Positions 51,178-52,527 of a DNA stretch of 61,173 nucleotides are shown piece after piece. The notes under the pieces were generated by a model. It was not told the DNA's origin. It saw only the letters and a program-made list of their open reading frames with translations, and searched no databases. The position numbers and the translations under genes are program-made. The DNA is from a virus: the IMG/VR virus record IMGVR_UViG_3300045988_099805, positions 1 to 61,173 of that record. One strand, written 5' to 3'. Every line of letters starts with the position of its first letter. Position 1 is the first letter of the stretch.

Positions 51178-51340
51178 GGGAATGTCGGTAGAAGAGCTGG
51201 CAGAATTTCTTTACGGTGTATCAGAGGGAACAGCTAAATTTGTTTCCTGTGATGATGAGTGCGACAGTTGCAGCGGTACAGAGGAAATTTGCGTACCGAG
51301 AATTATTGAGTTTTTGAAAAGCGAGGTAGACGATGGCTGA
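51155..51340 (+). CDS. hypothetical small protein (61 aa)
   Basis: ATG follows GGAGGAG. The MSVEELAEFLYG motif is shared with 58830..58997. Confidence 0.5.
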   Translation: MTEFQRIKGMSVEELAEFLYGVSEGTAKFVSCDDECDSCSGTEEICVPRIIEFLKSEVDDG

Positions 51341-52527
51341 TAAGCACACAAGAAATGACCTGCTTCAAATGCAGTCTTTACCGTTGTCGGCAAAAATTCA
51401 AATGACAAAACGCCGTATATCCGAATGGGTTGAATATTTCGGAGAAGATGGGGTTTATGTCAGTTTTAGCGGTGGGAAAGACAGCACGGTGCTTTTCGAC
51501 TTAGTCAGAAAGAGTTATCCTGATGCTCCGGCTGTATTTGTTGATACCGGTCTGGAATATCCGGAAATAAGAGAATTTGTTAGGACTTTTGAAAATGTTG
51601 TGTGGTTAAAGCCGAAAATGAATTTTCGACAAGTCATAGAAAAATATGGCTATCCGTTTTTTTCGAAAGAAATTTCGGAATGTATTGCAGAAAGCAGGAA
51701 ATACATTAAAATCCTCACAGACAGACAGACAGACAGACAGACAGACAGACAGACAGACAAAGGTTCATTACGCATATCGCATAGCGGATATGATCGGAGT
51801 AGACAGGAGAAAGAACAAAGGCAACAAATCATATCAAATGCTAAAAGAGGGAAATATCCCTAGCGAAATCCTTGAAGCTCCTGTTCGTATTAAGCAGCTT
51901 TTCGGAGTGAAATGCGACCAATATGGGGATATGTACGACAGATCAAGATACCTTTTTATGCTTGAAGCCCCGTTTGAAGTATCGAATATGTGTTGCAAAG
52001 TAATGAAGAAAGCTCCGGTACACGCTTATGGAAAAGAAACCGGCAGAAAACCAATTACAGCACAGATGGCAGATGAAAGCAGATTAAGGACAAGTAAATG
52101 GCTACAGAATGGATGCAATGCTTTTGAAGCAAAGAATCCTATCAGCAATCCGATGTCGTTTTGGACGGAACAGGATGTACTGCTTTATGTAAAAGAAAAT
52201 GATATTCCATTGGCAAGTGTTTACGGAGATATTGTTGTTGATTATTTCGCTATGAATCAGTGCGACAATCAGATGTCTCTTTCAGATTATGGGGTTTCAG
52301 AGAAAGAAACGCCTATTCTAAAAACTACAGGTTGTGAAAGAACCGGATGTATGTTTTGCGGATATGGATGCCACCTTGAGAAATCACCTAACAGGTTTGA
52401 ACGAATGAAGCAGACTCATCCGAAAATATATGACTACATTATGAGAAGTAATTCGGACGGTGGCTTGGGGTACAAAGAAATTATTGAATGGATCAATGAA
52501 CACGGAAATATGAATATTAAATTTTAG
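51333..52527 (+). pseudogene. PAPS-reductase-family (PP-loop, DndC/IbrA-like) DNA-modification gene split by an (ACAG)n microsatellite; OFF frame in this assembly
   Basis: The N-terminal part (frame of 51333) has the YVSFSGGKDS PP-loop. The C-terminal part (frame of 51646 ORF) has CERTGCMFCGYGC. The two frames meet only inside the repeat. Confidence 0.75.
51717..51759 (+). repeat. (ACAG)10.75 tetranucleotide microsatellite
   Basis: 43 nt counted from the sequence. Open in all three forward frames, reading (TDRQ)n. Confidence 0.95.

Follow-up and report, generated by a model that had tools for sequence, protein, structure and literature searches.

The window analysed here is the whole of a 61,173-nucleotide (nt) stretch, positions 1 to 61,173 of the IMG/VR virus record IMGVR_UViG_3300045988_099805. 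Its PAPS-reductase-family gene is interrupted by a tract of the tetranucleotide ACAG. The ACAG tract is probably a hypermutable simple sequence repeat (SSR) that acts as a frameshift ON/OFF switch, that is, a contingency locus. The SSR lies inside an open reading frame (ORF) and is longer than expected by chance. Its unit number toggles the frame, ON and OFF alleles both occur naturally, and the gene is under purifying selection. Slipped-strand switching had been proposed in an initial annotation made from the sequence alone. This reading gained support from homologues that differ in TDRQ copy number, from ON and OFF alleles in near-identical phages, and from purifying selection on OFF alleles.

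Tandem Repeats Finder (TRF) identified a period-4 array of ACAG (10.8 copies, 100% perfect, score 86) at 51717-51759. The 5' part of the gene ends with ...SRKYIKIL, and the tract follows directly. The ORF at 51333..51863 (176 amino acids, aa; YVSFSGGKDS) and the ORF at 51646..52527 (293 aa; CERTGCMFCGYGC) are in different forward frames. The tract has no stop in any of the three forward frames, which read TDRQ, QTDR, or RQTD. The window allele (43 nt) is OFF, and loss of one unit or gain of two restores the frame. In silico removal of 4 nt gave a 396-aa ORF and addition of 8 nt a 400-aa ORF; changes of 0, +4, -8, and +/-12 nt gave truncated products of 147-180 aa. Among 200 sequences simulated from the window with a first-order Markov model, period-4 tracts reached 18 nt at most (mean 12.2), as compared with the 43 and 51 nt observed.

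The initial annotation was therefore right in most of its description. The perfect 43-nt (ACAG)10.75 array was recovered by TRF, the PP-loop and Cys-cluster halves were found in different forward frames of the ORF list, and translation reproduced both the stop-free (TDRQ)n reading and the OFF state with its 176-aa product and out-of-frame tail. Changes of -4 or +8 nt do fuse the halves, into proteins of 396 and 400 aa rather than the estimated 398 aa or so. The claim that the 43-nt run is the only stretch in which both frames are open has to be corrected, as the frames of 51333 and 51646 are both open over about 51640-51860 (about 220 nt).

This overlap, together with the downstream-frame ATG at 51646, might suggest two naturally separate genes, or a full-length protein whose synthesis always depends on programmed frameshifting at the repeat. 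Such an arrangement is very improbable. There is no Shine-Dalgarno-like sequence ahead of 51646, one Pfam domain and one fold extend across the junction, and the relatives encode one protein. The OFF alleles described below are found in both wrong phases and at many lengths, so no single recoding signal could correct them.

In the repaired protein, PF01507 scored 68.5 bits (cut-off 22.5) in two stretches that flank the tract, including residues 42-99 of the 5' part. A single phrog_424 match covered residues 9-370, and the APS_reductase family TIGR02055 matched residues 211-294. The 3' part holds the rest of the PAPS-reductase fold, with an invariant Cys-Cys pair and a CxxxxGCxxCGxGC cluster. 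C215, C216, C334, and C337 are invariant in 77 homologues, a pattern that fits the [4Fe-4S] site of the APS-reductase type (CC...CxxC), and the enzyme may carry such an iron-sulfur cluster. The structure was represented by the AlphaFold model of a 96%-identical relative, P0001 (mean predicted local distance difference test, pLDDT, 80.7). Foldseek matched CysH/APS reductases over about 300 aligned columns (6vpu, 2goy, and 1sur; E about 3e-6 to 2e-5; target template modelling score about 0.6). The sole segment of the model with pLDDT <50 falls within the repeat-encoded residues, and lies at a helix end within a low-confidence insertion. The repeat site is thus predicted to tolerate length change.

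The 5' part is 95-97% identical to the N-termini of its relatives. The nearest public proteins (92-96% aa identity) are intact, with 392, 388, or 382 aa, and around the tract TDRQ copy number is their sole difference from the repaired window protein. Naturally separate halves, which the initial annotation had itself listed as a point to be checked among homologues, were thus not found there; the homologues are single intact proteins. The domain and fold across the break, taken with these intact relatives, establish that the ancestral gene is a single PAPS-reductase-family gene. The out-of-frame tail was also considered as a true alternative C-terminus (in distant relatives it ends ...G(K/E/D)YP-stop). 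This was rejected, because the stop arises from near-invariant N-I-P-S codons (ATC CCT AGC) read one base off.

The tract varies widely among relatives (L and P numbers denote related loci and proteins). A sample of 53 IMG/VR loci was fetched by peptide patterns elsewhere in the gene, which makes it blind to frame. An ACAG-type tract of 17-58 nt was found at the same site in 34 of these loci, whose proteins are 46-64% identical to that of the window; 7 of the 34 were ON and 27 were OFF. In all of the OFF tract loci, the upstream frame stops just past the tract and the downstream frame opens at the tract. The homologues without such a tract were mostly intact (15/17 ON, 2/17 OFF; Fisher p = 8e-6).

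Several loci with identical flanks (1000/1000) differ in state. The tract is 50 nt and ON in L002, and 42 nt and OFF in L009. It is 19 nt and ON in L004, against OFF alleles of 35 nt in L019 and 27 nt in L024; and 57 nt and ON in L008, against OFF alleles of 37 nt in L033 and 29 nt in L053. L034 (41 nt) and L035 (29 nt) also have identical flanks. All of these differences are multiples of 4 nt, and the ON/OFF pairs differ by 8-28 nt. Rapid whole-unit length change therefore takes place in otherwise identical backgrounds. We infer that slippage produces these changes, that they can be reversed within a lineage, and that selection acts as considered below.

Within the lineage of the window, tract length was counted up to the flank common to the relatives. 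On this scale, the ON alleles have 17 nt (P0015, back-calculated from the protein) and 29 nt (L054-61). The OFF alleles have 25 nt (P0124, also back-calculated), 33 nt (L070), 37 nt (L062-64), and 49 nt (L066), and the window itself is equivalent to 45 nt and OFF. Both wrong phases are present among these OFF alleles. The tract of L065 has at least 55 nt, as its contig ends inside the tract. A search with the N-terminal 128 aa returned more than 120 distinct N-terminal fragments of 134-208 aa; it gave only truncated fragments and none of the known full-length proteins, and so represents OFF alleles only rather than an unbiased census. Gene callers split these PAPS-reductase-like loci into fragments, and the identical 176-aa product was called on 3 public contigs.

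Two public contigs, L047 (5523-5553) and L065 (contig end), stop within the ACAG tract. Length heterogeneity or low coverage could explain such breaks in assembly. Assemblers evidently struggle there, and the 43 nt of the window might be a mis-assembly or sequencing error of a tract that is truly in frame. The chance of this is slight. The separate human-gut scaffold ERZ28619588 in ENA (SAMEA2042219, 61,557 nt) carries the identical 43-nt allele within 6,531 nt of 100% identity. Whole-unit differences and both OFF phases occur in dozens of independent assemblies, and a 43-nt tract would be expected to be shorter than typical short reads. The remainder of the window consists of densely packed long intact ORFs, which argues against general indel noise.

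Selection was compared among four alleles: the window (OFF), L054 (ON), L062 (OFF), and L066 (OFF). The ratio of nonsynonymous to synonymous substitution rates (dN/dS) was 0.09-0.11 for every pair, at dS 0.17-0.25. It was low in the upstream and downstream halves alike, and these four alleles contain no other stop or indel. A dN/dS of about 0.1 between independent OFF alleles indicates that the gene is not decaying. The downstream half is under purifying selection even in lineages sampled as OFF, the result predicted if OFF states persist only briefly on the time scale of divergence.

The repeat itself is also conserved. The 77 full-length homologues contain (TDRQ)1-5 at the site, and also NERTNERTNE and ASQPASQPASQ. 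At exactly the same site in the DNA, L071 has (GAAC)8 (NERT) and L072 has (AGCC)~8.75 (ASQP). Different repeat units at one site show that the repeat is conserved, not the peptide. The remaining broken copies, which have no long tetranucleotide tract or have a second lesion, each contain a homopolymer within the stretch of the frame change: A9 in L048 (6610-6618), G9 in L049 (6577-6585), and G8 in L067 (6556-6563), which comes from a Lachnospiraceae metagenome-assembled genome (MAG). L037 has G8 (about 6620) at its frame change where L042 has an in-frame G7, which indicates that this lineage has two tracts in the PAPS-reductase-like gene. In about 700 kb of related loci, long SSRs were found almost only in the PAPS-reductase-like and DNA methyltransferase genes.

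Some of the observations weigh against an adaptive switch. The ON fraction (7/34) is no different from the one third expected under free drift (p = 0.15), so the data alone do not show adaptive switching. In the lineage of the window, the ON alleles are short (17 and 29 nt) and every long tract is OFF, which could reflect runaway expansion after selection was lost. The adjacent C5-methyltransferase gene carries a TAA nonsense codon, a lesion outside any repeat. In addition, no DndA/D/E, Ssp (SspB/C), or PglZ partner genes were found in the neighbourhood. The random phase, the long OFF tracts, and the real decay of the adjacent gene would fit non-adaptive slippage, in which TDRQ is a tolerated slippery linker in a dispensable gene and the OFF copies are near-neutral or dead-end mutants. 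This explanation is unlikely, although it deserves more weight than an artefact or a pair of separate genes. It is opposed by a dN/dS of about 0.1 in both halves of independent OFF alleles at dS of about 0.2, with no second lesion. Lineages whose proteins share no more than 46-64% identity retain perfect tracts at one site, where three different repeat units are found, and the neighbouring methyltransferase genes have further tracts. So mutable a tract would also be expected to revert.

Under the contingency switch that we prefer, slipped-strand mispairing during phage or prophage replication would add or remove whole ACAG units. One phase in three would join the PP-loop half to the Cys-cluster half, giving an ON protein of about 396 aa, in which (TDRQ)n would form a disordered loop at the surface. 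The other two phases would give a truncated N-terminal fragment (OFF). The enzyme might modify the phage DNA or counter a host defence, and so might help on some hosts and be costly or expose the phage on others. The phage population would thus hedge its bets. The adjacent C5-methyltransferase gene, which has tracts of its own, would fit the same logic. The features of both genes are summarized in the table.

Table. Features of the PAPS-reductase-family gene and the adjacent methyltransferase gene in the window
Feature	Position	Strand	Basis or remark
5' part of the PAPS-reductase-family gene	51333..51716	+	ORF list and translation; 128 codons, PP-loop SFSGGKDS
ORF as assembled, 176 aa	51333..51863	+	128 native residues, repeat-encoded residues, 33-aa out-of-frame tail
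Perfect (ACAG)10.75 tract, probable frameshift switch	51717..51759 (43 nt)	+	TRF, frame arithmetic, simulations, alleles of relatives
3' part of the PAPS-reductase-family gene	51760..52527	+	Frame of ORF 51646..52527; PF01507, phrog_424, TIGR02055
C5-cytosine DNA methyltransferase, multi-TRD (target recognition domain) type	54228..55956	+	PF00145, three-frame reading, alignment to L056
(ACTT)5.75 in the methyltransferase	54516..54538	+	Encodes ...FTYLLTYLL.., immediately ahead of the catalytic SFPC motif
TAA nonsense codon in the methyltransferase frame	54574..54576	+	CAA (Gln) in L056; no repeat there
(GACA)12.75 in the methyltransferase	55012..55062	+	Between motif VIII and the first TRD; 9.75 units in L056
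G7 at a frame change, TRD region of the methyltransferase	55272..55278	+	The only G/C homopolymer of at least 7 in the window

The methyltransferase gene consists of three called ORFs (54228-54590, 54583-55080, and 55318-55956) and uncalled pieces at 55063-55318. PF00145 profile positions 1-59, 85-227, and 241-322 lie on three separate ORFs. The gene is interrupted at four places: the ACTT tract, the TAA codon, the GACA tract, and G7. The ACTT tract exceeds the imperfect in-frame version of L056 by 4 nt, and the distant relatives L034 and L035 have (ACTT)4.75 inside the gene. At the place equivalent to the GACA tract, the relatives L055, L012/13, L020, and L034/35 have (AGAGC)5.6-11.6. L055 reads through the G7-equivalent region in one frame. 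An SSR with unit-number polymorphism among relatives is therefore present in the methyltransferase ORF as well. The gene cannot be restored to ON by repeat changes alone, because of the TAA at 54574-54576; irreversible decay does occur in this module.

A natural two-subunit enzyme was considered for the methyltransferase fragments, a kind of split C5-methyltransferase known from M.AquI. One boundary may be natural in this sense, the junction of ...GVIEWK-stop and an overlapping ATG, which is seen again in three lineages. The other interruptions (ACTT, TAA, GACA, and G7) are lesions relative to L056 or L055. In L049, an adjacent gene for a DPPY-motif (N6/N4) DNA methyltransferase has (GACA)10.5 at its 5' end (7552-7593). 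This gene is out of frame with its upstream ATG, and is a third kind of DNA-modification gene with this repeat unit.

More tentatively, this temperate gut phage family might carry a small 'phasome' of tract-gated DNA-modification and anti-defence genes; we regard this as possible, with the balance somewhat against it. The PAPS-reductase-like gene would be gated by ACAG, GAAC, or AGCC, plus polyG/polyA; the multispecific C5-methyltransferase by ACTT, GACA, or AGAGC, plus G7; and the N6/N4 methyltransferase of L049 by GACA. If so, one burst or one lysogen lineage would release virions with differing combinations of modification states, and would hedge against modification-blind and modification-dependent defences at once. 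The phage would also run two separate targeted-hypermutation systems, the other being a retroelement with two targets.

With genes for a large terminase, portal, major head protein, tape measure, serine integrase, DnaD-like loader, and reverse transcriptase, the window resembles a complete temperate phage of siphovirus type, about 61 kb in size. The relatives also encode a DnaC-like gene and RecT. Their sources are human-gut metagenomes, with one relative in a Lachnospiraceae MAG. The temperate, Firmicute-type label of the initial annotation is supported only indirectly, the lifestyle by the serine integrase and a Clostridia-type host by this MAG relative. A scan of GTDB genomes returned only two loci, and the copy in the MAG is itself broken (G8 at the frame change), so the host assignment stays weak. 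A single scan of metagenomes with a DNA pattern likewise yielded no more than two loci. Megablast of 50000-56000 against the INPHARED phages gave no match, which means that no cultured relative was identified there.

The PAPS-reductase-like gene is located in the early/replication module. Its neighbours are small ORFs of unknown function, a weak GIY-YIG match, the methyltransferase, replication genes, RecT, and a metallo-beta-lactamase-fold protein. Of the flanking genes at 50261-51004 and 52994-53584, one encodes a metallo-beta-lactamase-fold hydrolase (phrog_392) and the other has a sub-threshold GIY-YIG match (phrog_19106). Relatives of the metallo-beta-lactamase-fold protein have weak or faint Pfam matches to the anti-Pycsar protein Apyc1. 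The flanking region looks like an anti-defence or accessory island.

Several other repeats were observed in the window. A diversity-generating retroelement extends over 45925-48747, with the reverse transcriptase at 47719-48747 and an A-rich template repeat at 47546-47620. Two tandem paralogues of 202 aa (DUF6273-like) contain its variable repeats (46423-46497 and 47037-47111) within their 3' ends. The retroelement is a second, unrelated targeted-hypermutation system in the phage. At 56770-56847, a 12-nt repeat with 6.5 copies (GAACCATCAGAC) lies in frame in the DnaD-like gene (56428-57225) and encodes EPTD/EPSD repeats. The positional equivalents of this ORF in relatives have 265, 261, and 249 aa, which suggests an in-frame length polymorphism. 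A 27-nt repeat at 42103-42330 (8.4 copies, 93% matches) gives a 9-aa periodic repeat in the ORF at 41733-42554, the N-terminus of which matches DUF7666. The intergenic segment 8148-8334 is of low complexity, with an A/G-rich AGAAA-like run followed by a T/A-rich run, and TRF gave many overlapping rows there; the segment might have a regulatory or origin-like role.

The initial annotation had called the gene a DNA-modification gene. Membership of the PAPS-reductase family is confirmed, and a role in modification is suggested by the family and the neighbourhood. PADLOC matched BrxP (4.8e-15) and SspD (8.6e-10) over the PP-loop only (residues ~39-109), with profiles that are much longer, so that no family-level match to these enzymes of DNA phosphorothioation systems was obtained. 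Roles in DNA modification or anti-defence have been proposed for phage-encoded PAPS reductases (PMC12839542; PMC13551039), and one is mentioned as aiding Dnd evasion in a passage of PMC13551039 that cites Piel et al. 2022. The window enzyme resembles DndC, SspD, and BrxP in its PP-loop, PAPS-reductase fold, and conserved cysteines. However, it lacks the cysteine desulfurase, DndD/E, and SspB/C partners, the similarity is weak and limited to the PP-loop, and its closest solved folds are assimilatory CysH/APS reductases. Like the phage PAPS reductases proposed as anti-defence genes, it is located in a variable region beside candidate anti-defence genes and methyltransferases.

About four in five of the assembled tract-bearing copies in the IMG/VR sample are OFF, and the gene is among candidate anti-defence functions. 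If the switch is adaptive, the DNA-modification state of the phage would be a stochastic, population-level trait. This would bear on host range, on the evasion of restriction and type IV defences, and on how 'broken' virome genes are read.

Phase variation through repeat slippage is a textbook strategy of bacteria. In phages, to our knowledge, the demonstrated cases have been limited to short homopolymers, in a small number of cultured lytic phages. Passages of PMC1557822, PMC1976455, and PMC5909438 describe tetranucleotide-repeat phase variation in the type III mod gene of Haemophilus influenzae and in the phasevarions of Neisseria and Moraxella; De Bolle et al. (2000), on tract length and rate of switching, is listed among the references of PMC11868660. 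As in the bacterial mod switches, a perfect tetranucleotide tract of about 5-15 units lies within the ORF of a nucleic-acid-modifying enzyme (a role that is presumed for the window gene). Whole-unit changes toggle the frame, and the unit number differs between otherwise identical backgrounds. AGCC, the unit at the L072 site, is also a repeat unit of bacterial mod genes. In contrast to the mod switches, the carrier is a temperate phage rather than a bacterial chromosome, and the enzyme has a PAPS-reductase fold and is not a Mod methyltransferase. The tract of the window also lies one third into the gene, in an internal loop, and not near the 5' end.

Homopolymer SSR contingency loci have been reported in T2/T4 (agt and rIIA) and in other lytic phages (Gomez, Barrick, Waters, bioRxiv 2025, PMC12633550). 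T2 agt encodes a DNA-glucosyltransferase; one restriction system favours its ON state and another its OFF state (PMC12633550). Sorensen et al. (2021 Cell Rep), which is among the references of PMC11868660, deals with hypermutable polyG tracts of Campylobacter phages. The window gene is similar to T2 agt in its phage-borne SSR frameshift, and the same selective logic is proposed for it. The phage homopolymer loci are tracts of 6-9 nt or polyG, in virulent phages, and were shown by experiment; the tract described here is a long tetranucleotide array with alternative units, in temperate gut phages, and is known from genome comparison alone. The initial annotation knew of no description of such a switch in a DNA-modification gene of a temperate Firmicute-type phage. 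In the literature searched, whose coverage is incomplete, conserved long tetranucleotide tracts were not described for PAPS-reductase or methyltransferase genes of phages; phage SSR contingency loci as such are known. The novelty is tempered by these homopolymer loci and by the prophage-borne, phase-variable neuO.

NeuO is carried by prophage CUS-3 and is switched by a heptanucleotide repeat. The neuO gene is a phage-encoded, phase-variable capsule O-acetyltransferase gene (PMC13001214). Both neuO and the window gene are ON/OFF-switched genes on the genome of a temperate phage, the latter probably so. However, NeuO acts in lysogenic conversion, on the host surface, and has a different repeat unit and enzyme family. 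The window gene is located in the early/replication module, and probably acts on phage DNA or host defence. The proposed mechanism is classical; here a probable switch of the long tetranucleotide kind is conserved at one site across a large and diverse family of uncultured temperate gut phages.

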